A stretch of 64,000 nucleotides of DNA from contig JAHIMR010000096.1 of the NCBI GenBank assembly GCA_018896525.1, positions 55,462-119,461 on the forward strand. The letters are read 5' to 3'. How positions within the stretch are numbered: the stretch's first letter is position 1; each line of letters begins with the position of its first letter. Position numbers and translations under genes: made by a program. Positions 19,794 through 62,512 of the stretch are shown here, piece by piece. Under the pieces are notes generated by a model that was given only the letters and a program-made list of their open reading frames with translations, was not told the DNA's origin and searched no databases. This DNA is from Actinomycetota bacterium (GTDB lineage Bacteria > Actinomycetota > Geothermincolia > Fen-727 > Anoxymicrobiaceae).

Positions 19794-20312
19794 ATGGCTG
19801 GCAAAGCCGGCAAGGTAACGGACGAGGAGAAACAGCGAATCGCGCTGGACAGGGTGCTCAAGAAGTACAGTAAACAGAAAGGCGCGCTCATCCCCGTCCT
19901 CCAGGAAGCCCAGGAGGGCCTGGGGTACCTCTCCGAGGAGACGCTTGGGTATATCGCGCGGAACACGGGCAGGACGTTGGCCCAGGTCTATGGCGTGGTC
20001 ACGTTCTACACCCAGTTCCGCCTGGAACCGATAGGCCGCCACCTGGTACGCATCTGCCACGGCACCGCCTGCCACGTGGGCGGGGCCGAGGACATAGACG
20101 CGGCGGTCTGTGGTCATCTGGACCTTGACCAGGAAGGGGGGACCACCCCCGATATGGAGTTCACCGTGGAGAAGGTGGTATGTGTGGGCGCCTGCAGCCT
20201 GGCCCCGATAATATTGGTGGATAACGTGGCCCACGGCCGGCTCGATTCCGAGAAAGCCCGCAAGGTCATCAGGGAGTACCAGAAGCGGAAGCAGGGGGCG
20301 AGGGGTTCTTGA
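19794..20312 (+). CDS. NADH-quinone oxidoreductase subunit E-like 2Fe-2S protein (NuoE/HydC/FdsG type)
   Basis: Motifs CHGTACHVGG ... CVGACSLAP are the thioredoxin-like 2Fe-2S signature of NuoE. Confidence 0.85.
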   Translation: MAGKAGKVTDEEKQRIALDRVLKKYSKQKGALIPVLQEAQEGLGYLSEETLGYIARNTGRTLAQVYGVVTFYTQFRLEPIGRHLVRICHGTACHVGGAEDIDAAVCGHLDLDQEGGTTPDMEFTVEKVVCVGACSLAPIILVDNVAHGRLDSEKARKVIREYQKRKQGARGS

Positions 20313-22087
20313 AGAAGAAAGACAAGGTCGTTGTGGGCCTGGCCACCTGCGGCATAGCCGCCGGCGGTGTCGAGGTGATGGACGAGATCGCCCGCGAGCT
20401 GAAGAAGCGGCGACTCGACGTCGAGCTCGACGAGACCGGATGCATCGGATGCTGCTTCGCCGAGGTCTTAGTTGATTTCGAGAAGGAGGGAATGCCCAGG
20501 GTCACCTACGGGGACGTACGGCCCGAGGACGTGCCCGCGCTGGTGGAGTCCCACCTGGTGAACGGCAAGATACTAAAAGAAAAGGTGCTCCTCATAGAGG
20601 GAAGAAAGACCACCGAGGCAGACTTCCTCAAGAAGCAGACCCGTATCGTTCTTGGCAACTGCGGGATCCTCGACCCCGAGGACATCGAGGATTACATGGG
20701 AATCGGAGGGTACGAGGGCCTCCGAAAAGCGCTCTCAGGGATGACCCCCGAGCAGGTGCGTAAGGAGGTCCTGGACTCGGGACTCCGTGGCAGGGGGGGC
20801 GCCGGTTTTCCCACTGGGGCCAAGTGGAACTTCTGCGCGCGCGCCGAGGGCGAGGACAAGTACATCGTCTGCAACGCCGACGAGGGAGACCCGGGCGCGT
20901 TCATGGACAGGAGTGTGCTGGAGGGCGACCCCCACGCGGTGCTGGAGGGCATGATAATCGCCGGCTACGCCATCGGGGCGACCCACGGATATATCTACTG
21001 CCGCGCCGAGTACCCGCTGGCTGTGAAGCGCTTGAAGATGGCTATCCGTGACGCGACCGGGAAGGGGTTCCTGGGTAGTGACATCCTTGGTTCCGGATAC
21101 AGCCTCGACATAATCATCAAGGAAGGGGCCGGGGCTTTTGTCTGCGGTGAGGAGACAGCCCTGATAGCCAGCATCGAAGGGGTAAGGGGGATGCCACGTC
21201 CCCGCCCGCCGTTTCCCGCCAACAAGGGTATCTGGGGCATGCCCACTAATATAAACAACGTGGAGACCCTTGCCAACGTGCCCTGGATAATCCGTGAGGG
21301 TGCCGGGAAGTTCGCGCGCCTGGGCACAAAGGGCAGCAAGGGCACCAAGGTTTTCTGCCTTACCGGCAAGGTAAGGCGCGGTGGGTTGGCCGAGGTGGCC
21401 ATGGGGACCACTCTCCGGGAGGTCATATTCGGCGTTGGTGGCGGGATAAAGAATGATCGCCCGTTCAAGGCGGTCCAGATAGGGGGCCCTTCGGGAGGAT
21501 GCCTTCCCGCCGAACTGCTGGACACACCGGTGGATTACGACTCGCTTCCAGCCGCGGGTGCCATAATGGGTTCCGGGGGGATGGTGATAGTCGACGACAC
21601 CACCTGTATGGTCGACCTCGCCAAGTACTTCCTCACGTTCACCCAGATGGAGTCGTGCGGCAAATGTACCCCCTGCCGGATAGGTACCAAGCGGATGCTG
21701 GAGATACTTACCCGCATATGTGAGGGGAAGGGGGAGCCGGAGGACATCGAGCGACTGGAGAAGCTGGCGGTGGATATCAAGGACGGGTCACTCTGCGCTC
21801 TGGGGGGAACCGCGCCGAACCCGGTGCTTACCACCCTGCGCTACTTCAAGGATGAGTACGAGGCCCACATCTTCGATAAGCGGTGCCCGGCGGGCCTGTG
21901 CTCGGAACTGGTGACGTTCCACATAGACCCCGAGAAGTGCAACGGATGCACCGTCTGCGCCCGCAACTGTCCGACGGGCGCAATAACCGGGGAGAAGAAA
22001 GAACCGCACGGGATAGACCAGGAGAAGTGCATAAAGTGTCGGGAGTGCCTGAGGCGTTGCCGCTTTGACGCGGTATACACCGTGTAG
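20309..22087 (+). CDS. NuoF-like NAD(P)H/FMN-binding Fe-S subunit (HydB/FdsB type) with C-terminal 2x[4Fe-4S] ferredoxin domain
   Basis: GRGGAGFPTGAKW (FMN/NADH site), ESCGKCTPCR (N3 cluster) and C-terminal CNGCTVCARNCP / CIKCRECLRRC. The TTG start overlaps the nuoE-like stop. Confidence 0.9.
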   Translation: MKKKDKVVVGLATCGIAAGGVEVMDEIARELKKRRLDVELDETGCIGCCFAEVLVDFEKEGMPRVTYGDVRPEDVPALVESHLVNGKILKEKVLLIEGRKTTEADFLKKQTRIVLGNCGILDPEDIEDYMGIGGYEGLRKALSGMTPEQVRKEVLDSGLRGRGGAGFPTGAKWNFCARAEGEDKYIVCNADEGDPGAFMDRSVLEGDPHAVLEGMIIAGYAIGATHGYIYCRAEYPLAVKRLKMAIRDATGKGFLGSDILGSGYSLDIIIKEGAGAFVCGEETALIASIEGVRGMPRPRPPFPANKGIWGMPTNINNVETLANVPWIIREGAGKFARLGTKGSKGTKVFCLTGKVRRGGLAEVAMGTTLREVIFGVGGGIKNDRPFKAVQIGGPSGGCLPAELLDTPVDYDSLPAAGAIMGSGGMVIVDDTTCMVDLAKYFLTFTQMESCGKCTPCRIGTKRMLEILTRICEGKGEPEDIERLEKLAVDIKDGSLCALGGTAPNPVLTTLRYFKDEYEAHIFDKRCPAGLCSELVTFHIDPEKCNGCTVCARNCPTGAITGEKKEPHGIDQEKCIKCRECLRRCRFDAVYTV

Positions 22088-22111
22088 GCGCCGGTAACCC
22101 GGGAGGAGACA

Positions 22112-24805
22112 ATGTCCGAGGATATGAAGCTGACGATAGACCGCAGGAAGTGCGTCGGGCGGAAGGGCCAGACCATCGTGGAGGTGGCCCGGGAGAACGA
22201 TATATGGATACCGACACTGTGCTTTGACGAGCGGATGGAGCCTTATGGGGCGTGCCGCGTCTGCCTGGTAGAGGTGGAGGGGGCGAGGGCGCTGCTCCCG
22301 GCGTGCACCGCGGAGATAACCCCGGACATGGTGGTCACGACCTCCAACGAGCGCATTGACTCGATAAGGAGAACGGTTATCGAGCTGATTCTCTCCGACC
22401 ACCCGAAAGACTGTCTGACCTGTGAGTCCAACGGCTCCTGCGCCCTGCAGGACCTGGCGTACCGGTACGGTGTCAAGGAGTCCTCCTTCGGGGGGGAGGC
22501 ACACAGCTACCACTTGCTCGACGACAACCCGGTGATCGAGCGCGATCCCGACAAGTGTATCCTCTGCGGACGGTGTGTCCGGATATGCGAGGAGATCGTG
22601 GGGGCGGGCGTCTACGGGTTCGTGGGGCGGGGCTTCGATACGACGGTCGGTACACCGTACGAGCATCCGCTGGAGGAGAGCCCGTGCCTGTTCTGCGGGC
22701 AGTGCATTTCCACCTGCCCGGTGGGGGCGCTGGCTTCGAAGCTCTCCAAGGGTGCCGGAAGGCCGTGGGAACTCGAAGAGACCGACACCACCTGTCCGTA
22801 CTGCGGGGTAGGGTGCACGTTGACACTGTGGACACGGGACAACAAGGTGGTTAACATCACGGCCCCGCTTGACAGGGGTGTCAACAGGGGGAACCTCTGC
22901 GTCAAGGGGCGGTTCGGGTTCCAGTATATTGATTCACCCGAACGGTTGAAGCACCCGATGATCAGGGGCAAGGACGGTCGGTTGCGGAAGACGAGCTGGA
23001 ACAAGGCGATATCGTTGGTGACCGAGCGGTTCTCCGGGATAGTGGAAAAGCACGGAGCCGACGCCGTGGGAGGGCTTTCCAGCGCGCGGTGCACCAACGA
23101 GGAGAATTACCTTTTCCAGAAGTTCATGCGGGCGGTGGTGGGCACCAACAACGTGGACCACTGCGCCAGGTTGTGACACAGTCCCACGGTCGCCGGTCTG
23201 GCGGCCACGTTCGGGAGCGGTGCCATGACCAACTCCATCGATGACCTCGCCTGCGCTGACGTTACGCTGATAATCGGGTCCAACACCTCGGAGAACCATC
23301 CGGTCATCAGCATGGAGATCATCAAGGCGGTGAAGGCGGGCAGGAAGCGCCTCATCGTTATCGATCCCAGGAACATCATGATGACCGAGTTCGCCGACGT
23401 GGTGCTCAACCACCGGCCGGGCACCGACGTGGCCGTTCTGAACGGGATGATGCACCAGATAATCAAGAAGGGGCTTTACGACAGGGAGTTCGTGGAGGCC
23501 CGGACCGAGGGCTTCGGGGAACTGAAGAAGCTGGTAGCCGCCTATACACCGGCGTATGTCGAGAGGATATCCGGCGTACCCGCCGCCAAGCTCAAGGAGG
23601 CCGCGGAGCTGTTCGCGGGAGCGGACCACGCGAATATCCTCTACGCCATGGGCATCACCCAGCATATAACAGGCACCGACAACGTGATGTCGGTCGCCAA
23701 CCTGGCTTCGCTCACCGGGAACCTGGGGATACCCGGGGGTGGTGTCAACCCGCTGCGGGGCCAGAACAACGTACAGGGGGCGTGCGACGTGGGCGCCCTT
23801 CCCAACGTCTACACCGGCTACCAGAAGGTCGCCGACGAAGGCGTGCGGCACAAGATGGAGTCGGCGTGGGGCGTTGAACTGCCGGATACCCCCGGTCTTG
23901 TAGCCACCGAGATGGTGCGAGAGCGTTCTAAAGGCGGGGTCATGGCAATGTACATCATGGGTGAGAACCCGATGGTCTCCGACCCGGACCTCAATCACGC
24001 CGCTGCGGTTCTGGAGGACCTGGAGTTCCTGGTGGTCCAGGACATATTCATGACCGAGACCGCCGAGATTGCCGACGTGGTCCTGCCCGGCCTAACCTAC
24101 GCCGAGAAGGACGGCACCTTCACCAACACCGAGCGGCGGGTGCAGCGCGTCCGCAAGGCGGTCCAAGGCCCGGGGGAGGCGAGGGACGACTGGCGGATAA
24201 CCTGCGATATCGCTCGCGCGATGGGTTACCCGATGGAGTACGATCACGTATCCGATGTGAAGAGGGAGATCTGCGCTCTCACCCCGAGCTACGCCGGGAT
24301 AACCTGGGAGCGGCTGGAGGACGGGGGCGTGCAGTGGCCGTGCCCCACACTGGAACATCCCGGAACGCCGATACTGCACGTGGGGCAGTGTACCCGCGGC
24401 AAGGCCAGGTTCATGCCGGTAGAGTTCAAGGAGCCGGCGGAGAAGACCAGCAAGAAGTACCCGCTGGTGCTCACCACCGGTCGTGTGCTCACCCACTTCC
24501 ACACCGGTTCCATGACCAGGCGCTGCGAGGCGCTCGACGAGCTGGTGCCCCGGGCGGTGGCGGAGTTCAGCCCTGAGGACGCAAAGAAGTACCGTATAAA
24601 GGACGGCGACACCGTCTGCCTCACCAGCCGCCGCGGGACGATAGATGTAACAGTAAAGGTCACCGAGAAGTCGAACCCGGGCGTGGTCTTCATGCCGTTC
24701 CACTTCGCCGAGTGCGCGGCGAACGTGCTGACCGGCGGTGCGCTCGACCCGGTAGCCAAGATCCCCGAGTACAAAGTAAGCGCGATAAAGGTCCGGAAAA
24801 AATGA
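22112..24805 (+). CDS. fdhA: Formate dehydrogenase catalytic subunit, selenocysteine-containing (NuoG-like N-terminal Fe-S domains + Mo/W-bisPGD domain); in-frame UGA at 23174-23176
   Basis: The two track ORFs (22112..23176 and 23225..24805) share one frame. The junction reads [30 protein letters not shown], the conserved FDH active-site Sec/Cys context. A hairpin lies 11 nt downstream of the UGA. Confidence 0.85.
23188..23206 (+). promoter_or_regulatory. Candidate bacterial SECIS apical hairpin
   Basis: GGTCGCC-GGTCT-GGCGGCC forms a 7-bp stem (one G.U) with a GGUCU loop. It starts 11 nt after the UGA. The position and G/U-containing apical loop resemble bacterial fdh SECIS elements. Confidence 0.5.
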
Positions 24806-24860
24806 CAAAATAGTGCCAGGCACCATTTTGTCATTCCTTCCAATGCACCATTGGTGCATT
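24801..24860. terminator. Double hairpin after fdhA (variant of the GGTGCCAGGCACC family followed by the AATGCACCA/TGGTGCATT palindrome)
   Basis: AATGACAAAATAGTGCC/AGGCACCATTTTGTCATT is a near-perfect palindrome overlapping the fdhA stop. A second perfect 9-bp palindrome lies at 24842-24860. Confidence 0.55.
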
Positions 24861-24879
24861 CCCAAGAGGGGGCATAGCG

Positions 24880-25590
24880 ATGATCGATAACCGGGCGTAC
24901 CGGGGGGTAATGGAACCTGAGGGACTCGACTGCTACCGGGTGGTCATCGGTGAGAGTGACCTCTACATCTGTACTGAAGGTGAGTGGAAGTCCCGGGCCC
25001 GCGAATCACTGGCGGAGCGCAGGAGGGAGCTGGAAGAGTACCTGGAGAGTCATCCCTCTTTCGGCATGAGCTTCAAGCCGGTTCCCGCTACCGGTGACGC
25101 GCCCGGTATAGTCGAGGAGATGGCACGGGCGGCCTCCGTTTTCGATGTCGGCCCCATGGCTTCGGTCGCGGGGGCTATCGCACAGAGAGTGGGGCGCGAC
25201 CTCCTGAACCTCTCGAGCCAGGTGATAGTGGAGAATGGCGGCGATATTTTCATGGCAGGCGGCCGCAAGCGAAGAGTCCGGGTGTTCGCCGGGGAGGGGG
25301 CGCCGGCCATCGACATAAAGCTCGCCTGTTCGCCCGGGGGGATGGGCCTCTGCACGTCCAGTGCCACCGTGGGCCCGTCGGTATCGCTGGGGGCGGCGGA
25401 CGCGGTGGCCGTGCTCGCGCAGACAGCCACGCTCGCCGACGCCGCGGCAAGCGCGTTCGGTAATATGGTCAACTCGACGGAGGAGATCGGGGACGTCCTT
25501 ACCGGGGCGTCCGAACACGCCGAGGTCCTGGGCATCGTCGTGGTGGCGGGGGGTTCCGTTGGCGTATGGGGTGGGCTGGAGATAGCTTGA
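24880..25590 (+). CDS. UPF0280 / ApbE-superfamily-like protein (function unknown)
   Basis: 236 aa. YRV.IGESDL.I ... GPMA.VAGAIA ... ENGGDIF pattern as I recall for UPF0280 proteins. Assignment from memory of the family pattern only. Confidence 0.5.
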   Translation: MIDNRAYRGVMEPEGLDCYRVVIGESDLYICTEGEWKSRARESLAERRRELEEYLESHPSFGMSFKPVPATGDAPGIVEEMARAASVFDVGPMASVAGAIAQRVGRDLLNLSSQVIVENGGDIFMAGGRKRRVRVFAGEGAPAIDIKLACSPGGMGLCTSSATVGPSVSLGAADAVAVLAQTATLADAAASAFGNMVNSTEEIGDVLTGASEHAEVLGIVVVAGGSVGVWGGLEIA

Positions 25591-25709
25591 CCTACCGGAC
25601 TGTCGGTGGCTGCTGGTACGATTAGATATATTCACAATGACCGTAAAGGGTTTCAACAGTTGAAATAATCATAGACATAATATGTTATATCATGTAATAT
25701 ATAGCCACA

Positions 25710-26300
25710 ATGAAGTTATCAGAATGGGCCAGAAAACAGAACGTGTCCTACAGGACCGCATGGCGCTGGTTCCACGAGGGAAGGCTTCCCGTCCGAGCCG
25801 AACAGGTCGGTGAAGGGAAGACCATTCTCGTCTTTGAAGACGAATCCGGACCTGCTTACGATGAGAGCGTAGTTATTTACTGCCGTGTATCCGGTCACGA
25901 CCGGAAGGATGACCTGGGGAGGCAGACCGAAAGGTTGAAGTCCTTCGCCTCGGCAAAAGGCTGGCCGGTCAAACAGGTTGTCGAAGAGATCGGCTCCGGG
26001 CTCAACGGCAAGAGGACGAAGCTCTTGAAGCTCCTCTCCAGCCCGGAAGTGGGGAGAATAATCGTCGAGAACCCCGACCGCCTGGCGCGCTTCGGTTTCG
26101 AGTTTATAGAGGCCGCAATGATGTCACAGGGCAGGAGTATCATAGTAGCAGATGAGACGGAAGAGACAGCGGACATATGGGCCGACTTCATTGACGTGGT
26201 GACATCCATGTGCGAGAGAATTTACGGCAAGCGAGGAGCACGCGACAGGGCGAGGAAAGTTCTGGACACGCTGAAGAGCGAGGACAAGGAAACCAAATGA
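25710..26300 (+). CDS. tnpA: IS607-family serine recombinase transposase (MerR-like HTH + resolvase catalytic domain)
   Basis: MKLSEWARKQNVSYRTAWRWFHEGRLP (HTH) followed by VVIYCRVSGHDRKDDLGRQ (catalytic Ser context). Clear paralog of the 61057..61569 protein. Confidence 0.9.
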   Translation: MKLSEWARKQNVSYRTAWRWFHEGRLPVRAEQVGEGKTILVFEDESGPAYDESVVIYCRVSGHDRKDDLGRQTERLKSFASAKGWPVKQVVEEIGSGLNGKRTKLLKLLSSPEVGRIIVENPDRLARFGFEFIEAAMMSQGRSIIVADETEETADIWADFIDVVTSMCERIYGKRGARDRARKVLDTLKSEDKETK

Positions 26301-26785
26301 TGAGATTTGACGTAAGGCTAACTGAACTCATAACGTTAATCAGGGGAACGTTTGCTAACGAGAGCATTTACCTGACCTGCCGCCCATTGAAACAAGGGGA
26401 GGCACAGCACCCCTCCACGTTCGCCGCCGATAACATCACAGACCTGGATATCTGGACGCTTCTCATGCAAGCGAAGATCTGCTCGGGAAACATCGACGCC
26501 GTAGCATTGGTCTTGCGCATATTTCGAAACGAGAAAACACATATTCAGAATGAAGAGGGAGTAAGGGTCGAAGTCCCCTACAAAGACCTCTACATGTTTC
26601 TCGCAGAAGAAGCCGGAGTGACTGGCTTTGACCTTCAAACAACTCTCGATATGCACTGCACCTACGCCCCATCGGGCGAACCCATATCCCCCGAGCCGGC
26701 CGTTAATTATAAGGCGTCGATCGACCTATTGACAGAGGCCGGATACCAGCCAAGAATGATGATACAAGAGAAGAAGGAGCCGTGA
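26297..26785 (+). CDS. Hypothetical 162-aa protein with RNxxxH (HEPN-like) motif, encoded between tnpA and the tnpB-like gene
   Basis: The ATG overlaps the tnpA stop (ATGA), and its stop overlaps the next start. Helical-looking sequence with LRIFRNEKTHI (R77-x4-H82; nt 26525-26542). No other recognisable domain. Confidence 0.6.
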   Translation: MMRFDVRLTELITLIRGTFANESIYLTCRPLKQGEAQHPSTFAADNITDLDIWTLLMQAKICSGNIDAVALVLRIFRNEKTHIQNEEGVRVEVPYKDLYMFLAEEAGVTGFDLQTTLDMHCTYAPSGEPISPEPAVNYKASIDLLTEAGYQPRMMIQEKKEP

Positions 26786-28347
26786 TGGCCGTCAGTAGTA
26801 ACGGTTCTGTGACAAGGGCTTACGATTATCGTCTGCCCAGAGAGATTCAAAAGGACTGCCTGCGGACCCTGGGCCTCGTACTGCCCATCGAGAATGACCT
26901 ACTCGAATCCCTATGGTCGGAGAGCTTTCTGGAACAGCTCGGCTTGACGTGCGACACGAAGTACGTCTGGAAGTGGCTGGAGCCCAGGATGGAAAGGCCC
27001 GAAGGCCTTCCGTCACGCATATGGAGAGGCATACTGGAACAGGTCGGAAGGATACTCAAGGCACAGGCGGTCAGGCTCGACCTGTTCCGCTTTCTCAAGT
27101 CCATAACCACCAACGAGCAGGAGTGGTGCTGGCAGCTCTGCCGGGACAACGGCAAACCTTTCGTCAAGGCGAACCACATATACTCGATAAAAGAGGCTGT
27201 CTGCCGGTACAGGTGCAAGAACGCGGGCAAGTTCCCCGAGAGATACTTCGACATCACGGGTTGCCCCAGACTGAGGAACGGCATCATTACCTACGCCCCC
27301 GACGACGGACAGGCGATACGCTACGACCTGGAGGGAACCACCTTCAAGGTCCGACTGAAAGTAATTGACGAAGAAGGCACCTGGACCTGGAGGGAGACGT
27401 CATTCGAGCTTCCCGGCATCGTTCTCGAACGGCTGGGGGACGGGACCATGAGGTCTCCCGACCTCAGGTGCAAAGACGGCAAGGCATTCCTCGATTTGAA
27501 GGTGGAGTCCAAGAACAGCGGCGCCCGCGATAATTGCCCGCGCAACAAGCTGTTCGCGGACTGGGGGACCACCAGGAAGCTACTGGCTATCATAGCCGTC
27601 ACCCCCGGGGGTGCCCAGATGGGTCCCCCGATCTTCTTGAAGTACGAAGGTGTCTTCGGGAAGCTCCATCGAATCAGGCAGCATATCGACCACTTGAAGA
27701 AGGCAAGGGCCAAGGTCGCCAGGAGGAAAGACAGGCGGCGTTGGGACAGGTACACGGCCCTGATAGGACAGGCATGGAGTAAGTACCATGAGCTACAGAA
27801 GGAGCTGGCGCACCTCGCCTCCAACGCCCTGGTGGACATAGCAGAAGCGTACGGTTGCGACGCAATCTACGTGGAAGACCTCTCCACGTGTAAGTCAAAG
27901 AACTTCAGCAGGAAACTCAACAGGATAATCAATAACACCGTTCGATCGCAGATCTATAACAAGGTGGCGTACAAGGGAAAGCTGAAGGGCCTGAGCCTCC
28001 ACTACGTAAAGGCGTGGTGGACCTCCCAGACGTGTCCCTTGACAGGTGTTCGAGGAAAGAGATTTACGGCCCCCGATGGCATCCGGCGCGCGGGAGGCGG
28101 CTGGTTCATCTCTGAGGCCTGCTCTTTGGACGCTGATTATGTGGCCTGCAAGAACCTGGCTCGAAGAGCCTTGTTTGATTTCTCACTCAACAGAGCAAAA
28201 GCCCTTGCCTACAAGGAGAGGGCTACTCTTGCCAAGCAGTTCAGGCAAGGCACTGGAGGGCTACGGAATCTGCGGAAGGCTCTCTCCGGATGGAACTACG
28301 GCGTCAAGATAGTGCCCGGTTCTGTTTTCTATCCGTTGAGGGCTTGA
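26782..28347 (+). CDS. Enlarged TnpB/Cas12-like RuvC nuclease (521 aa) with degenerate zinc finger
   Basis: TnpB-like N-terminus TRAYDYRLP. RuvC-I LFADWG (D260, nt 27559-27561), RuvC-II AIYVEDL (E365), KLNRII...YKGK..G...V..WWTSQTC, and RuvC-III LDADYVACKNL (D452). The usual CxxC...CxxC is replaced by CPLTG...EAC. Confidence 0.8.
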   Translation: MMAVSSNGSVTRAYDYRLPREIQKDCLRTLGLVLPIENDLLESLWSESFLEQLGLTCDTKYVWKWLEPRMERPEGLPSRIWRGILEQVGRILKAQAVRLDLFRFLKSITTNEQEWCWQLCRDNGKPFVKANHIYSIKEAVCRYRCKNAGKFPERYFDITGCPRLRNGIITYAPDDGQAIRYDLEGTTFKVRLKVIDEEGTWTWRETSFELPGIVLERLGDGTMRSPDLRCKDGKAFLDLKVESKNSGARDNCPRNKLFADWGTTRKLLAIIAVTPGGAQMGPPIFLKYEGVFGKLHRIRQHIDHLKKARAKVARRKDRRRWDRYTALIGQAWSKYHELQKELAHLASNALVDIAEAYGCDAIYVEDLSTCKSKNFSRKLNRIINNTVRSQIYNKVAYKGKLKGLSLHYVKAWWTSQTCPLTGVRGKRFTAPDGIRRAGGGWFISEACSLDADYVACKNLARRALFDFSLNRAKALAYKERATLAKQFRQGTGGLRNLRKALSGWNYGVKIVPGSVFYPLRA

Positions 28348-28482
28348 CGTGGTGAACGTGGGTGTTGTGGAACAGATGTACACATTTGTTGAACGGTTTA
28401 ACGCATGTCGCCGACGAAGATATTAAGCGATAAGTACGATTTGAACGGAACCTGGTGACGCACGGTAAGGGCGGGTAATGGT

Positions 28483-29118
28483 TTGAACGGGCAAAGGTAT
28501 GCGGGCGGGAATGGGTCATGGCCGAACTCCCAGTGGGTGCCACCACCGGGGCCGTACGGAATGCCACCCGGAATGCCACCTATGGCGCCGATTCCGCCAC
28601 CGGAGCAACCCCGGATAAGGCCGGGGCTCATACGGTGGCTCTGCCTGTCCCTTATCCCGTTCGTCGCCTTGTTAGTACTGTTCCTCCTGCTGTTTGTTGT
28701 CGGGAGACCGTACGTTGTTGACGGGCAGTCGATGATGCCGACGCTGCTGGACGGCGACAGGGTCTTCGTGGTGCCTTACCGTGGAAACACAACAGAGGAC
28801 AGGGGGGACATTGTCGTCGTCAAGTGTGTGACCGGGATGCAGGAGTTGTTGATAAAGCGTGTTGTGGCGATATCCGGGGACAGGATCAAGTCCGGTGACG
28901 GCAAGATCGTCGTGAACGATACTTTCATATACAAGGACACCAACGGGTCTGGTTCCGAGGAGTACGACACCCTGGTGCCGGACGGGCACGTATTCGTGAT
29001 GGGAGATAACGAGAGCAACTCATTCGACAGCCGGTCTTTCGGGCCTGTTCCGAAGAGCGATATCATCGGGAAGGCAATGTTCATTTTCTGGCCGCCGGGA
29101 GACATCAAGAGCTTATAG
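28483..29118 (+). CDS. lepB: Signal peptidase I
   Basis: VDGQSMMPTL (catalytic Ser), LIKRVVAISGD (catalytic Lys box) and GDNESNSFDSRSFGPV. The start is uncertain: TTG 28483 gives a Pro-rich 48-aa extension, with alternatives GTG 28537 and ATG 28561. Confidence 0.85.
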   Translation: MNGQRYAGGNGSWPNSQWVPPPGPYGMPPGMPPMAPIPPPEQPRIRPGLIRWLCLSLIPFVALLVLFLLLFVVGRPYVVDGQSMMPTLLDGDRVFVVPYRGNTTEDRGDIVVVKCVTGMQELLIKRVVAISGDRIKSGDGKIVVNDTFIYKDTNGSGSEEYDTLVPDGHVFVMGDNESNSFDSRSFGPVPKSDIIGKAMFIFWPPGDIKSL

Positions 29119-29167
29119 CTCAAAGGCCAGGGAACCTCGGGAAGGGCGGAGTCAAAGAAAGCTGTTT

Positions 29168-29572
29168 TCAGGTCCCGGTTTTTATCCCTACCTCCTTCCC
29201 CTTGAGGACCATGTATCTCACGATTGTAGTGATAAGACCAACAAATCCTACTCCAGCAATGGATATCCCCAATATTATAAATGGTTGTGCTTCCAACAAC
29301 AGAAGCATAACAATACCAACAATTAGAAAGACCATGCAGATAATCGTGTTTTGCAGTTCGATCCTGTACGGTTGCCCGAGGTCCCTTTCACTCAACTCGA
29401 GAAACTTTTGCAAAATTACGGAAAACACCACGTACCTGTATTCAGGCCGTTCGGGATTCGGGCTTATCCTTTCTATCCGTACCCGCTCCCCTTTCCGGAA
29501 AGCGAGCTCACCCTTAATATGAATATTCTTTTTGATACTACCAAGATCTCCCGGACTGAGTGTTTTCCTCAT
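29168..29572 (-). CDS. Hypothetical membrane protein (2 predicted TM helices at the C-terminus)
   Basis: 134-aa ORF in a visibly AT-richer patch. Hydrophobic stretches MVFLIVGIVMLLLL and FIILGISIAGVGFVGLITTIV. No family recognised. Confidence 0.45.
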   Translation of the reverse strand: MRKTLSPGDLGSIKKNIHIKGELAFRKGERVRIERISPNPERPEYRYVVFSVILQKFLELSERDLGQPYRIELQNTIICMVFLIVGIVMLLLLEAQPFIILGISIAGVGFVGLITTIVRYMVLKGKEVGIKTGT

Positions 29573-29715
29573 TTCATCCCATTTTCCAATTGGCTTTTCC
29601 CATATCTTCCTCTTGACCCATATGTTACCACCATCTTGAGCACCGCTCCAGGTTCAGGTTGGAGCGGCTGCCTTGCGGCGGCGTTCTGTTATCATATCGG
29701 GGAAAGTGACCATGA

Positions 29716-32064
<2,349 letters not shown>

Positions 32065-32073
32065 GGGGTCCGG

Positions 32074-32358
32074 ATGGCGATCAGCATGGAGGAAGTCGAG
32101 CATGTGGCAAAGCTTGCCAGGCTTGCGCTGAGTGGCGAAGAGAAGGAGGCGATGAGGTGCCAGCTTTCCGACGTGCTGGAGCATGCTCACAGGGTATCCG
32201 AGGTTGACACCGAAGGTGTATTACCCACCAGCCATGTCGTACCACTGGTGAACGTCTTCAGGGAGGACGTGGTACGGCCGTCCATCACTCCCTTCGAGGC
32301 CACCGGCAACGCGAGTTGGGCCGAGGAGGGCGCCTTCAGGGTGCCGAGGATACTATGA
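32074..32358 (+). CDS. gatC: Asp/Glu-tRNA amidotransferase subunit C
   Basis: 94 aa. EEVEHVAKLARLALSGEE ... typical GatC. Confidence 0.9.
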   Translation: MAISMEEVEHVAKLARLALSGEEKEAMRCQLSDVLEHAHRVSEVDTEGVLPTSHVVPLVNVFREDVVRPSITPFEATGNASWAEEGAFRVPRIL

Positions 32359-32520
32359 TGTCCCGTCTCATAAATACAATGGCATTCGAACGCCGCTGCA
32401 TCCACTCCGGCTGCGTTCCGCTTCATCGGCGTACTACAGAGTATGCCTCAGTCGCGCGCCTTGCCGGAAGCGGCGCATCGACGTTCTCGGTGCTTCACTG
32501 TACTCATGAGAAGGGACACT
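32358..32520 (+). repeat. MITE-like palindromic intergenic element, copy B
   Basis: Same family as 6773, 44930, 47344 and 53692. Begins on the last base of the gatC TGA and ends 8 nt before the gatA start. Confidence 0.8.
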
Positions 32521-32528
32521 AAGCGGGG

Positions 32529-34001
32529 ATGGGAATGGATATCATCAACCTGGACGCGCTGGCGATAGCGGAGTCCATACGGGAGGGGGAGATCAGCGCG
32601 GTGGACGCTACCACCGCGTTCCTGGAGCGGATCCGGGAGGTCGAGGCGATCGTCAACGCCTATATCAACGTATCGTACGAGGAGGCCGCGCGGCGCGCCG
32701 AGATGATAGACGCGATGCTCGCGGAGGGCCGGGATCCCGGGCCGCTGGCTGGTGTGCCGATAGCGGTGAAAGACCTCCTTTCCACCAGGGGGTTCACAAC
32801 CACATGCGGGTCCCGGATGCTCGAGAACTTCGTTCCCGTCTATGACGCTACGGTGGTTGGGAGAGTGGGCGAAGCGGGGATGGTCATGCTTGGCAAGGCG
32901 AACATGGACGAGTTCGCCATGGGCTCCTCGACCGAGACCTCTTACTTCGGGCCGACGCGAAACCCCTGGAATCCGGACACGGTTCCCGGAGGTTCCAGCG
33001 GCGGCTCGGCGGCGGCGGTGAGCGCCGGGGAGGCCCCGTGGGCCCTGGGTTCGGATACCGGGGGGAGCATAAGACAGCCCGCCGCGATGTGCGGGATAGT
33101 GGGGATGAAACCAACTTACGGCCTGGTTTCCAGGTACGGCCTCGTCGCCTTCGCTTCGTCACTGGACCAGGTAGGCCCGATGGCACGGAACGTTGGAGAC
33201 TGTGCGGCCCTCCTGGGGGTCATCGCCGGGCACGACCCGATGGACTCGACGTCAATCCCCGCGGAGAAGGTGGATTACCAGGGTAGACTCGACGGCGAGG
33301 TGCGCGGGCTCAAGGTGGGGGTAGTAAAGGAGATATCGAGCCGGGGCATCGACGAGGGGGTGCTGGAGCGTTTTCGGGCCGCCGTCTCCAAACTGGAGGG
33401 GCTGGGCATGGAGGTGGGGGAGATATCGCTTCCCAGTTTTGAGTACGCGCTGTCGGCGTATTACGTGATTGCCCCGGCGGAGGCGTCCAGCAACCTGGCA
33501 CGCTTCGACGGGGTCAGGTACGGTTTCCGCGCAAGCGCGGAGGGCGAAGACATCTGGGAGATGTACGACAGGACACGCTCCATAGGGTTCGGTAGCGAGG
33601 TAAAGCGGAGGATAATACTCGGCACCTACGTGCTTTCGGCGGGGTACTACGACGCCTACTACGGGCAGGCGCGGAAGGTGAGGACCCTTATCGTCAAGGA
33701 GTTCGAGCGTGCTTTCCGGACCTATGACGTGCTGGTGTCGCCGACAACGCCGTCGGTCGCGTTCCGCCTGGGTGAGAAGGTTGACGACCCTCTGACGATG
33801 TACCTCTCCGACATGTGCACGATACCGGTGAACCTGGCGGGAATCCCGGCGATAAGCCTGCCTTGCGGCCTGTCGGAGGGTATGCCGGTGGGGTTCCAGT
33901 TGATGGGGCCCGCGCTGGGGGAGGCAACGGTCCTCAACGTGGCCTACGCGCTGGAGTCCGAGCTCGGGTTCGACCAGCGCCCCCCGATCGGCCGCAGTTA
34001 A
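32529..34001 (+). CDS. gatA: Asp/Glu-tRNA amidotransferase subunit A
   Basis: Amidase signature [11 protein letters not shown] and PIAVKD. Confidence 0.95.
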
Positions 34002-59722: not shown

Positions 59723-59856
59723 CCGTTCCTCAGAATGATGACAAATGCGCCATCTCTCCTGATTGACGTTTCTCAGGCGTCCGCCTCTCGGAAACGAGAG
59801 GTCTTACGTCCCCTCCACGTCCGTTTACCCTCTCCGTCGAACTGACGGCGAGCAAT
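59723..59856 (-). ncRNA. Candidate omega-RNA (reRNA) scaffold overlapping the tnpB 3' end
   Basis: By analogy with characterised TnpB systems, the guide RNA scaffold spans the 3' end of tnpB to the IS right end. The segment has the hairpin CCTCTCG-GAAA-CGAGAGG and is duplicated as a solo copy at 62525-62658. Confidence 0.45.
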
Positions 59857-61007
59857 CGTATGTTTTCAGATGCGTTGTCGTCCCTGTCCGCTGTGTGCCC
59901 GCCGGAGTCGCACACAAACACACGGTCGGACAGCGTGAGGTCCTCCTTGACCCACCCGCACTTGGAGCACGGCTTGGAGGTGGCCTCAAAGCGGGGGACC
60001 ACCACCAGATCGATGCCGTACCAGTAGCACTTGTAGGCAAGTTGCCTCCGGAACTCACGCATGGAGGAGTCGGCAACGGCACGGGCGAGCCTCCTGTTCT
60101 TCATCATGCCGGACACGTTCAGGTCCTCGACGCCGATCACGTACGGCCTCTCAGACGGCGGCTTGGCTTTCGCCACTATCCGTGAGGTCGCCTTGTGTAC
60201 GGCGTCTGAGCGCACGCGGGATATCCGCATGTGCTGCCTGGCTATTCTTTTCCTGGTCTTCTCCCGACGATTTGAGCCTTTCTCCTGGCGGGACAGCTTC
60301 TTCTGGAGACGGGATAGCTTCTTCGCGCCCGTATAGAGCGCCTTCGGGTTCTCGCAGTGAGTGTGGTTGTCGTTGCCATGCGAGCAGACAGCCAGCGTCT
60401 TCACCCCGAGGTCTACACCTGTGGGAGGGCCTGTCGCTTCTTCTACCTCCATCTCCTGTTCTACCTGGAGGCTTACGAACCACCTGCCGGCGCGCTCGGA
60501 GACGGTCGCGGAGAGAACGTGAACGCCGGGGGTGCCGTCTGCCGGCAGGTATCCCTTCTCCTTCAGCCTTGTCCAGCCCAGGCAGGGGAGCTTCACCCGC
60601 CTGGCTTCCACGTGTATGGAACCGGTGAGGCGGAAGGAGCCCAGGCCCCGCCTGCGACTCTTGAAGCGCGGGAAGCCCACCTTGCCCTTGAGCTTTCCTT
60701 TCTTCTTCTCTTTCGCCCTCCGGTAGAAGTGGGTGAAGGCCCTGTCCAGGTCCCGGAGCGCCTCCTGGGGGGCGCACTTGGAGACCTCGTAGAGCCAGGG
60801 GAACTCCGTCTTCTTGAGGGCGTTCAGCTCGCGGTGGAGTTCAATAGCGTTTGGGGACCTCCCGGTGAGGCGGTAGCTCTCACTCTTTCGCGCAAGCCCC
60901 CAGTTGTAGGCGAAGCGGGCGGCGCCCGCGTGGTTTGCCAGGGCCTTCTCCTGTGTCCTGTTGGGCTTGAGCTCCGTCTTGTAGGCCCGCTTAGTCTTCA
61001 GGGTCAC
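59730..61007 (-). CDS. tnpB: TnpB (IS605 OrfB-family RNA-guided RuvC nuclease), canonical
   Basis: KRAYKTELKPN.TQ N-terminus. RuvC-I GVDLGVK, RuvC-II VIGVEDLNV, Zn finger TSKPCSKCG...FVCDSGGHTADRDDNASENI (RuvC-III). GTG start. Confidence 0.92.
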   Translation of the reverse strand: MTLKTKRAYKTELKPNRTQEKALANHAGAARFAYNWGLARKSESYRLTGRSPNAIELHRELNALKKTEFPWLYEVSKCAPQEALRDLDRAFTHFYRRAKEKKKGKLKGKVGFPRFKSRRRGLGSFRLTGSIHVEARRVKLPCLGWTRLKEKGYLPADGTPGVHVLSATVSERAGRWFVSLQVEQEMEVEEATGPPTGVDLGVKTLAVCSHGNDNHTHCENPKALYTGAKKLSRLQKKLSRQEKGSNRREKTRKRIARQHMRISRVRSDAVHKATSRIVAKAKPPSERPYVIGVEDLNVSGMMKNRRLARAVADSSMREFRRQLAYKCYWYGIDLVVVPRFEATSKPCSKCGWVKEDLTLSDRVFVCDSGGHTADRDDNASENIRLLAVSSTERVNGRGGDVRPLVSERRTPEKRQSGEMAHLSSF

Positions 61008-61056: not shown

Positions 61057-61569
61057 CTAGATCCTCGCGCACATTGAGGTAACCACGTCTATGAAGTCGG
61101 CCCACATGTCTGCCATCTCCTCAGTATCATCGGCAACTATGATACTCCTGCCCTGTGACACCATTGCGGCCTCTATATACTCGAAGCCGAAGCGGGCCAG
61201 CCGGTCTTTGTGCTCCACCAGGATCCGACCGACTTCGGGGGTTTGCAGCAACCCCGTGAGCTTTCTTTTGCGGCCATTCAAGCCCGAGCCTATCTCCTCC
61301 ACCACCTGACCAACCTTCCACCCGTTTGCCGCGGCATAATCCTTGAGCCGCGAGACCTGGCGACCCATGTCTTCCTTTTGGTCGTGAGAGGATACACGGG
61401 CGTATATCGCTACCTGGGCTGGTGGCTTCATCCTGAGGGCTTCTTCGTAGACGAGAATCGTGCCTGTTTCCAACTGTTCTGCTCTCGCCGGAAGCGTACC
61501 ATCGTGATACCAGCGAAGAGCGGTCCTGTAGGATATCCCGTTCTTGCTTGCCCATGCAGACAGTTTCAT
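61057..61569 (-). CDS. tnpA: IS607-family serine recombinase transposase (C-terminal tail cut off by an in-frame TAG)
   Basis: MKLSAWASKNGISYRTALRWYHDGTLP + VAIYARVSSHDQKEDMGRQ. Paralog of the 25710..26300 protein. The TAG replaces the Tyr codon of the paralog, and the downstream frame still encodes GKRGARNRAKK... Confidence 0.9.
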   Translation of the reverse strand: MKLSAWASKNGISYRTALRWYHDGTLPARAEQLETGTILVYEEALRMKPPAQVAIYARVSSHDQKEDMGRQVSRLKDYAAANGWKVGQVVEEIGSGLNGRKRKLTGLLQTPEVGRILVEHKDRLARFGFEYIEAAMVSQGRSIIVADDTEEMADMWADFIDVVTSMCARI

Positions 61570-61842
61570 GTGTATATAATATCATGATAATACACAGATG
61601 TCATCATATCAGTGAACTGCTAACAACCCTCCGCTGTCAGCTATCGGTTACCGACGGAGAACGACTCAAACCCGTGTCAGTCGTCAATAGCGGGAACGAG
61701 GCTGAACGTGCAACCCCAAATCAATACGGTGCTAAGAATCCACAACTCAAAGACCTGCGCCACGTTACCGGGAATTCCATGGCTTAACATTGACATACAC
61801 AGCATTATGTGTTACACATAAAGATGTGTTCAAGTCATAAGA

Positions 61843-62103
61843 ATGTGGAAGGAGAATGCTTTGTCCAAGAGGAATCTCACACTCTCCCTGTCCGAGAGCC
61901 TCATCAAGAAGGCAAAGACTGAGGCGGCCAGGGAAGGGGTCTCGATGAACTTCTACATCCAGGAAGCGGTGGAGGAACGGCTCAGAGCACGCTCTGGTTA
62001 CATGGCCGCGATGCGAAGGCAGTTGAAAGACCTCGATGCCGGTCACGACCTGGGGACCAGGGGAGATATTCGGTACACCAGGGACGAGCTCCATGAGCGA
62101 TAG
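61843..62103 (+). CDS. vapB: Ribbon-helix-helix (CopG/VapB-like) antitoxin
   Basis: KRNLTLSLSESLIKKAKTEAAREGVSMNFYIQEAVEERL is a typical RHH. It overlaps the downstream PIN gene by 11 nt. Confidence 0.7.
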   Translation: MWKENALSKRNLTLSLSESLIKKAKTEAAREGVSMNFYIQEAVEERLRARSGYMAAMRRQLKDLDAGHDLGTRGDIRYTRDELHER

Positions 62104-62512
62104 AGTCTTCGTGGACACGAACATCCTGGTCTACGCGCACGATATCTCCGCGGGGAACAAACACCAAAAGGCCAGGGACATAGTCTCTGACCTCTGGGTT
62201 TCCGGGCTCGGCGTAATCAGCACCCAGGTCCTGCAGGAATTCTACAACGCCGTCACAAGGAAGGTTCCGAAGCCGCTACCACTTCAAGAGGCAAGGAGGA
62301 AGGTCAGTGACTTCTCAAAGTGGGGAGTGGTGGTGATCGGGGTTGATGACGTCCTGGACGCGATCGACATCCAGGCGAGGTACGGCTTCTCCTTCTGGGA
62401 CTCCCTAATAATATCCGCGGCGATAACCGCCGACGCGAGAGTCCTCATAACCGAAGACCTGACCGACGGGCAAGAAGTCCGCGGAGTGCTTGTTTCAAAT
62501 CCGCTGCTGTGA
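62093..62512 (+). CDS. vapC: PIN-domain toxin (VapC family)
   Basis: MSDRVFVDTNILVYAHD (first acidic residue), ...SFWDSLIISAA..., ITEDL. Start at ATG 62093. Confidence 0.85.
   Translation: MSDRVFVDTNILVYAHDISAGNKHQKARDIVSDLWVSGLGVISTQVLQEFYNAVTRKVPKPLPLQEARRKVSDFSKWGVVVIGVDDVLDAIDIQARYGFSFWDSLIISAAITADARVLITEDLTDGQEVRGVLVSNPLL

Follow-up and report, generated by a model that had tools for sequence, protein, structure and literature searches.

A probable passenger gene between tnpA and a large divergent tnpB in an IS607-family insertion element of an Actinomycetota bacterium

Introduction

On contig JAHIMR010000096.1 of an Actinomycetota bacterium (Anoxymicrobiaceae), an IS607-type insertion element carries a third gene between its transposase gene, tnpA, and its predicted nuclease gene, tnpB. 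The question raised by this locus is whether that gene, encoding a protein of 162 amino acids (aa), takes part in the work of the element or travels with it as cargo. The window analysed comprises 64,000 nt of the contig, and all coordinates given below are positions within it. The original prediction had read the middle open reading frame (ORF) as a putative HEPN RNase joined to a TnpB scaffold, possibly acting as a toxin, a defence module, a guide-processing factor or a step toward a Cas12-like effector complex. The evidence assembled here points in a different direction: the locus is probably an IS607-family insertion element, and the 162-aa ORF a passenger outside its transposition and nuclease core.

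Gene content and boundaries of the element

The element measures about 2.75 kb (approximately 25648-28396) and holds three co-oriented ORFs, as established from the ORF listing and by direct reading. Its features are the following.

25648..25709, plus strand: left end, with the GGG junction at 25648-25650, then TTTCAACAGTTGAA and an AT-rich leader of 27% GC containing two sigma-70-like promoter matches
25710..26300, plus strand: tnpA, 196 aa, IS607-family serine recombinase/transposase with an N-terminal helix-turn-helix (HTH) and a resolvase catalytic domain
26297..26785, plus strand: probable passenger gene, 162 aa, acidic, of an uncharacterised family of mobile elements and phages
26782..28347, plus strand: tnpB, 521 aa, divergent large TnpB-family predicted RNA-guided nuclease, with an alternative start at ATG 26785
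28186..28396, plus strand: omega-RNA-like structured region, covering the last ~160 nt of tnpB and a 49-nt tail
28395..28396, plus strand: right-end GG core dinucleotide, placed by the alignment of 7-8 right ends
28397..28416, plus strand: putative guide portion of the omega-RNA, TTTAACGCATGTCGCCGACG, in flanking host DNA, placed by the TnpB/IS607 paradigm only

Both boundaries are marked by comparison with sister copies. Homology starts at GGG|TTTCAACAGTTGAA, and in the comparison of the window with loci L036 and L007 the left end begins GGTTTC(A/G)ACAGTTGAA; the left junctions found in this lineage read AGGG, CGGG, GGGG and ACGG. At the other side, homology ends at ...TTGTTGAACGG in eight copies, stopping there or within 2 nt, and the sequence directly after GAACGG differs in each sister copy. 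No inverted repeat pairing the two element ends was found. These ends agree with the published rules for IS607 elements, namely a strict GG core, a TGGG target or target-adjacent motif (TAM) and an omega-RNA scaffold ending ...UCGG, the scaffold here ending ...ACGG (10.1101/2023.11.20.567912). The original prediction was right about the IS607 type, but its bounds of 25620-28490 were too wide.

The transposase conforms to the family as well. TnpA scores 185.6 bits against the NCBIfam IS607 transposase model NF033518 (cut-off 110) and 63 bits against Pfam Resolvase; the resolvase domain extends over residues 54-174 and is preceded by weak HTH matches at residues 5-43, so that the DNA-binding domain stands N-terminal to the catalytic domain in the domain order of IS607. 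The tnpB gene lies downstream on the same strand, an arrangement also found in most relatives, and the ratio of nonsynonymous to synonymous substitution rates (dN/dS) of tnpA against L007 is 0.11 (dS ~0.54), showing purifying selection on the transposase.

The element sits between an AbpE-like gene and a signal peptidase gene, a conserved host pair with a DNA ligase gene also nearby. In the related genome L049, the AbpE-like and signal-peptidase genes are neighbours, separated by ~300 bp that contain no element, and the element of the window is therefore an insertion; the flanks in L049, at ~60-65% amino-acid identity, are too diverged for the exact empty-site junction to be read.

In the flanking DNA, TTTGAACGG occurs twice more on the same strand, at 28440-28448 and 28482-28490, which lie 52 and 94 nt beyond the GTTGAACGG of the right end. 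Both extra copies are host sequence by comparison with L048, and that at 28482-28490 overlaps the listed TTG start of the signal-peptidase ORF; they may reflect a target preference of TnpA or chance.

The gene junctions are tight. An ATGA overlap joins the stop of tnpA to the ATG of the 162-aa ORF at 26297, and a GTGA overlap lies at GTG 26782, both exactly where the original prediction had placed them; gene callers favour ATG 26785 as the start of tnpB, which leaves a 1-nt overlap with the middle ORF. These overlaps, which had been taken to imply co-translation, are present here but not conserved: the gene order in L007 is the same, but its genes are ~10-25 nt apart. Promoter-like sigma-70 sites lie in the left end at 25653-25681 and 25672-25700, from which the three genes would be co-transcribed, and the passenger would be translationally coupled to its neighbours.

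A further, good sigma-70-like match (TTGACA-17-AAGAAT, 10/12) is found at 26729-26757, inside the 3' end of the passenger gene and 25 nt upstream of the tnpB start. Judged by its sequence, this site could serve tnpB as an internal promoter; its -35 part is lost in the L036 deletion described below.

The middle gene and its predicted fold

The 162-aa ORF is a real gene. Its sole close homolog, P0002, shares 73% identity; in L007, where it is found, it is flanked by a tnpA of 90% and a tnpB N-terminus of 78% identity. Against L007, dN/dS is 0.26 at dS 0.54 over 155 aligned codons, from which it follows that the ORF encodes a protein under purifying selection, and an AAGGA Shine-Dalgarno-like sequence stands upstream of ATG 26297. 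When 1.84 billion representatives were searched exhaustively by HMMER, with a two-sequence profile as query, 59 matches were listed at E<=1e-3 (P0002, itself part of the query, included), and of these 38 fall below 1e-10. In family alignments of 40 and 57 sequences the conserved positions are T41, F42, D45, N46, W53, R74, F76, P94 and K96, which make up the family motifs STFxxDN, W53, R74-x-F76 and P94-x-K96. The protein has an isoelectric point (pI) of 4.9, the family median being 5.7.

With the 57-sequence alignment, AlphaFold2 yields a mixed alpha/beta model at a predicted local distance difference test (pLDDT) score of 96.9 and a predicted template modelling score (pTM) of 0.88; with a 2-sequence alignment the prediction was uninformative (pLDDT 44). 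The predicted chain runs beta-alpha-beta-beta-alpha and continues with a pair of long beta-strands (beta-hairpins) and further beta/alpha elements, with 7 strand segments (two of 15-17 residues) and four helices in all. Foldseek searches of PDB and BFVD gave nothing better than E = 0.017 or a TM score of 0.35, and the core domain has no match in Pfam, NCBIfam, PADLOC, PHROG or PDB sequence searches; a DUF6576 match in six homologs is uninformative. In tblastn searches of 50,697 deposited phage genomes, neither the 162-aa protein nor one of its homologs found a match.

These results bear directly on the HEPN assignment. A HEPN domain is an all-helical four-helix bundle, and the predicted fold here is alpha/beta. 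The RNxxxH string on which the original prediction relied is indeed present, as RNEKTH at R77 to H82, but the arginine is replaced by Q in P0002, and columns 77 and 82 are variable in both family alignments. No HEPN protein appears among the best 50 Foldseek matches per library (PDB, BFVD), and no Pfam, NCBIfam or PADLOC HEPN profile matches the 162-aa protein or 40 of its homologs. With the motif not conserved, the model alpha/beta and no HEPN match by structure or profile, the assignment does not hold.

A variable cargo slot between tnpA and tnpB

The linkage of the 162-aa gene to TnpB is not conserved either, an outcome that the original prediction had itself named as a refutation. When the passenger-family profile was run on six-frame translations of 47 loci, L007 was the sole further match among the large-TnpB loci, so that only one of ~34 such loci besides that of the window carries the gene. 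The closest sister copy, L036 (TnpA 91% and TnpB 92% identical), has lost it by an internal deletion that leaves remnants of its head (~26 nt) and tail (~35 nt); the original prediction would also have counted a frameshift in sister copies as a refutation, and this deletion comes near to that. After this loss, tnpB of L036 is intact, with dN/dS of 0.20. In L002/L039 (65% identity), tnpA overlaps tnpB and the slot is empty; tnpA likewise abuts tnpB in L008, L010-18, L022, L025 and L034.

A different gene occupies the same place in L003 (L003:161-6611; TnpA 70% and TnpB 51% identical), where a 1240-aa MmeI/PglX-like N6-methyltransferase-endonuclease gene and a 160-aa ORF lie in the slot and a left-end motif lies upstream of tnpA, and this locus is apparently an IS607 element with defence-type cargo. 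Its 160-aa ORF was considered as a homolog of the passenger and set aside, being unrelated to the 162-aa ORF. The tnpA-tnpB junction of this IS607 lineage is a variable cargo slot, which is empty or holds either the 162-aa gene or the 1240-aa restriction-modification-like gene. Documented in this way with sister copies, the slot bears on how minimal insertion sequences begin to carry passengers. The 162-aa gene would have been acquired at this junction by the forebear of a small sub-clade.

In L036, the tnpA gene has a TAA at codon 3 (L036:2410-2418; TTA in the window) while tnpB is intact, which accords with the frequent finding that TnpB outlives TnpA.

The large TnpB lineage and its probable omega-RNA

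The 521-aa protein is recognised by Pfam Cas12f1-like_TNB (PF07282) at 38.1 bits (cut-off 26.3) and falls below the NCBIfam cut-offs, scoring 63.2 for guided_TnpB (cut-off 100), 25.2 for IS607_TnpB (350) and 24.3 for IS200_TnpB (425), with the NCBIfam TnpB match confined to residues ~290-465. It belongs to a divergent subfamily and is not a canonical TnpB. At 521 aa it is, as originally noted, enlarged, exceeding the 425-aa TnpB of a second IS607 element in the window by 96 aa. A database search recovered 43 relatives of ~520 aa, and in an alignment built from 24 of them the RuvC triad D260, E365 and D452 is invariant and falls on the catalytic motifs of TnpB/Cas12f chains of known structure. 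The match between the family profile and such structures (8hr5, 9nzp, 8j1j and others) is confined to ~200-467; the N-terminal ~200 residues, with a conserved YAPDDGQA, and the C-terminal tail (LSGW...PLR) are specific to the family. The protein had been called Zn-finger-less, which is correct in so far as the Zn ribbon is degenerate beside an intact RuvC triad, but two of its four cysteines remain (C418 and C447); the C4 pattern is incomplete and the domain is still recognisable. More distant family members retain the ribbon CPxCG...CxxCG, two cysteines being characteristic of the sub-clade of the window, in which Zn coordination would have been lost. Purifying selection acts on tnpB as on the other two genes, its N-terminus giving dN/dS of 0.28 against L007.

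This lineage is mobile: several genomes hold more than one copy (at least 9 full-length copies and a fragment in Ca. Uabimicrobium and several in Ktedonobacter, by tblastn of the fetched loci), and flanks differ among L001, L002, L003, L036 and L038. A serine recombinase gene directly abuts tnpB in most loci, and some tnpB copies are solo. The 521-aa protein is thus a member of a distinct, usually two-gene, IS607-associated large-TnpB lineage. With its ~520-aa proteins, its degenerate Zn finger, and its ends, covarying omega-RNA scaffold and likely guide position defined, this lineage could be of interest to the study of compact RNA-guided nucleases.

Within the planctomycete Candidatus Uabimicrobium sp. 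HlEnr_7, the full-length copies and the fragment lie on the chromosome (L010-L018, L026), the full-length copies being near-identical. The tnpA match of L011 is in two pieces and that of L013 covers residues 51-134 only, which suggests frameshifts or truncation.

At the 3' end of tnpB, RNAalifold applied to 8 relatives finds 50 base pairs, with 92.5% of cells paired as against 31-47% when the partners are slid, and compensatory changes in 16 pairs as against 3-6 when slid; none of 500 shuffles reaches these values. The helices occupy ~28186-28361, and the structured region runs to the right-end ...GAACGG, in good agreement with the omega-RNA expected earlier at ~28.2-28.5 kb (covarying structure at ~28.19-28.40 kb). 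This region (~28186-28396) is probably the omega-RNA scaffold, with a guide beginning at 28397; the guide coordinates 28397..28416 are inferred by analogy with known IS607 systems. No Rfam family matched the element, which thus shows neither a group I intron (IStron) nor any known omega-RNA family.

Other genomic contexts of the passenger family

The distant homologs of the 162-aa protein are mostly found in phage-like or other non-TnpB contexts. Nine contexts of the family were read, of which seven are independent extra contexts, including the following.

L042: homolog in a tight same-strand cluster with a phage-type single-stranded DNA-binding protein (SSB) gene and other PHROG families
L044: homolog with phage-type phosphoribosyl pyrophosphate (PRPP) synthetase, NAMPT, nucleoside deoxyribosyltransferase and HNH genes
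L041: homolog after an Xre-HTH/HipA pair, next to the HipA toxin gene
L043: tandem paralogs
L045: 36%-identical homolog immediately 5' of an unrelated IS607-type tnpA (177 bits; ~30% identity with that of the window)
L047: homolog 0.8 kb from a solo, convergently oriented IS607-type TnpB, on its 3' side

In L045, a left-end-like sequence lies upstream of the passenger homolog, and the third ORF has no similarity to the large-TnpB family or to any NCBIfam model. The phage-like context is represented by two metagenomic contigs only, on which the neighbouring genes match PHROGs. In phages, the family would belong to early or auxiliary regions.

Two irregular arrangements were observed among these loci. 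Three tandem paralogs, comprising a fragment and copies of 160 and 152 aa, share one small contig (L043:1-1183), and on a phage-like contig a passenger-family copy is split into two adjacent ORFs (L044:992-1500).

Weighing the explanations

The reading that we consider probable, an IS607-family element with a passenger in its tnpA-tnpB slot, can be set against three alternatives. That the 162-aa ORF is a chance ORF or a decaying remnant might be argued from a word-indexed search of 5.8 billion proteins, which returned two matches only, from its deletion in L036 and from its GC content (50.5% against 55-57% in the neighbouring genes); the purifying selection, the many HMMER matches with common conserved motifs, the highly confident AlphaFold model from the family alignment and the Shine-Dalgarno-like sequence make this very improbable. 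The HEPN RNase model, in which R77 and H82 would serve a toxin, a defence or guide-processing factor or a Cas12-like intermediate together with the TnpB scaffold, retains in its favour the RNEKTH string and a gene that is co-oriented with tnpB and overlaps it. Against it stand the variability of both motif residues in a family whose other positions are invariant, the predicted fold, the failure of HEPN to appear in any of the profile, PDB sequence or PDB/BFVD fold comparisons and the patchy linkage to TnpB; moreover, no CRISPR array was found in the 14 kb scanned (20000-34000), nor was there a cas gene among the flanking ORFs, which leaves the proposed intermediate toward a Cas12 effector complex unsupported. 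We give this model next to no credence: the pairing of HEPN with TnpB fails, and the locus is not to be pursued as a proto-CRISPR effector complex.

A more serious competitor is that the 162-aa protein is a dedicated accessory of IS607-type elements, which could regulate TnpA or TnpB or assist either as a cofactor, and which would be recurrently kept because it tunes transposition or RNA-guided homing. Its tight operon position with start/stop overlaps would suit such a role, as would purifying selection similar to that on the TnpB N-terminus, the independent link in L045 to a different IS607 tnpA in another gene order, the proximity to an IS607-type TnpB in L047 and the precedent of an accessory regulator, Arc, in the superfamily. 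On the other side, only one other large-TnpB locus examined has the gene and the closest sister has deleted it, homologs occur in phage-like clusters and in a HipA neighbourhood without IS607 genes, the L047 homolog is external to the element, past the TnpB 3' end, and the Pfam and NCBIfam scans of this acidic protein report no domain that would bind DNA or RNA. We therefore regard the accessory role as unlikely, and it is kept at that level because two of the seven independent contexts are IS607-linked. Several observations do weigh against the passenger reading. The two linked contexts (L045, L047) are more than we would expect by chance and hint that the function may be bound up with IS607 biology; the early stop (codon 3) in the L036 tnpA means that the loss of the passenger there may reflect decay and not dispensability; this exact element is known from a single genomic site, with the same neighbours on 10 contigs; and the fold search covered PDB and BFVD only. 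The role of the passenger is a guess, namely that it aids the element or the host in conflicts between mobile elements and hosts (e.g. anti-defence or host takeover) and does not process guide RNA.

If the locus is an IS607-family element with a passenger, as we favour, its cycle may be pictured by analogy with studied systems. TnpA would excise and integrate the element at GG core dinucleotides, with no terminal inverted repeats or target duplications. TnpB, guided by the omega-RNA, would cut the vacated (empty donor) or naive site, which offers a G-rich TAM and the right-flank target, and recombinational re-copying at the cut site would reinstall the element.

A wider proposal, which we hold to be rather unlikely, is that the 162-aa proteins form a new, structurally unmatched family that IS607-type transposons and phages have recurrently recruited as an accessory factor, which might serve anti-defence or host manipulation or modulate the serine transposase or TnpB. 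If it were true, IS607 elements would be vehicles for such cargo in the tnpA-tnpB slot. The family, found in phages and mobile elements and having a confident predicted fold unmatched in PDB and BFVD, is a reasonable candidate for screens of anti-defence or accessory functions.

A second IS607 copy and other features of the window

The window holds a second IS607 element on the minus strand, with tnpB at 59730-61007 (425 aa) and tnpA at 61057-61569. The TnpAs of the two elements are 68% identical, and their TnpBs align over 130 residues only, at 25% identity. The end motifs are also alike (59723-59732 and 61600-61690 in the second element; 25648-25665 and 28388-28396 in the first): the second right end, ...GGAACGG, comes directly after the tnpB stop, and its left end reads GGGTTGTTAGCAGTT as compared with GGGTTTCAACAGTT. 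With TnpAs and ends alike and TnpBs unrelated outside the RuvC core, like transposase and end modules appear joined to very different nuclease modules, which looks like modular exchange of the nuclease/guide module. Such mixing fits the polyphyletic TnpA-TnpB associations described in PMC10691335.

The second copy had been presented as canonical, and its two-gene layout is indeed so, but its tnpA carries an in-frame stop at codon 171 (~61057-61059, ...TSMCARI*GKRGARNRAKK...) where homologs have Tyr, and homologous coding continues to ~61009. The stop truncates its transposase at the C-terminus, and this copy is perhaps non-autonomous.

Adjoining the second element on the plus strand, at 61843-62512, an 86-aa ORF overlaps a 158-aa ORF (..RVFVDTNILVYAHD..) that resembles a PIN/VapC toxin; as read from the translations alone, the two may constitute a VapBC-type toxin-antitoxin pair.

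Upstream of the first element, a molybdopterin formate-dehydrogenase-like gene (22112-24805, plus strand) contains an in-frame TGA at 23174-23176 (...NNVDHCARL*HSPTVAGL...). The gene caller of one assembly reads through it to give a single gene of 897 aa, and that of another reports 354 and 526 aa. We take this TGA to be a probable instance of the classic selenocysteine site of FdhA/FdhF-type enzymes.

Comparison with known systems

Several established systems resemble parts of this locus. HEPN RNases (Cas13, Csm6/Csx1, abortive-infection and toxin HEPNs) share with the 162-aa protein a lone Rx4H string in one sequence, but they are all-alpha bundles whereas the protein here is predicted to be alpha/beta, with the motif not conserved and no profile or structural match. 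Cas12f and Cas12n resemble the large TnpB in the RuvC and TNB core, and its best solved-structure sequence matches are TnpB/Cas12f chains over ~200-467; in contrast to them, the gene of the window is embedded in a transposon with TnpA, has no CRISPR array or adaptation genes, and would draw its guide from the right end of the element. The accessory gene Arc of IS605-family elements (bioRxiv 10.64898/2026.09.24.754181) is similarly a small third gene inside a TnpA/TnpB element that overlaps its neighbours. However, Arc is a basic ribbon-helix-helix (RHH) DNA binder widely conserved with its elements, whereas the 162-aa protein is acidic, alpha/beta, free of RHH or HTH and patchily distributed.

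The closest comparison is with the IS607 family itself (IS607 of Helicobacter pylori, IS1535 and the CboIStron type). The element of the window shares with it an N-terminal-HTH TnpA that passes the NCBIfam equivalog model, a downstream same-strand tnpB, GG cores without terminal inverted repeats, a right end in ...CGG and a structured 3' RNA. It differs by the third gene between tnpA and tnpB and by its TnpB, which is ~520 aa long, lies below the NCBIfam cut-offs, has no HTH_OrfB_IS605 N-terminus, and bears a degenerate Zn ribbon and a conserved C-terminal tail; by Rfam search, the element also has no group I intron. According to Altae-Tran et al. 2023 (PNAS, PMC10691335), the C4 Zn finger has disappeared from some branches of TnpB, TnpA-TnpB associations are polyphyletic, and serine-recombinase TnpB transposons may carry cargo (e.g. 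branch Ser-3). An IS607 element with rare cargo is thus already known as a kind; the passages of that paper on this topic do not mention the 162-aa family, and the TnpB of the window is not mapped to a branch named there. What is new here is an uncharacterised passenger family with an unmatched predicted fold, the gain, loss and replacement of cargo documented in one slot, and the definition of the ends and the omega-RNA of a divergent large-TnpB lineage.

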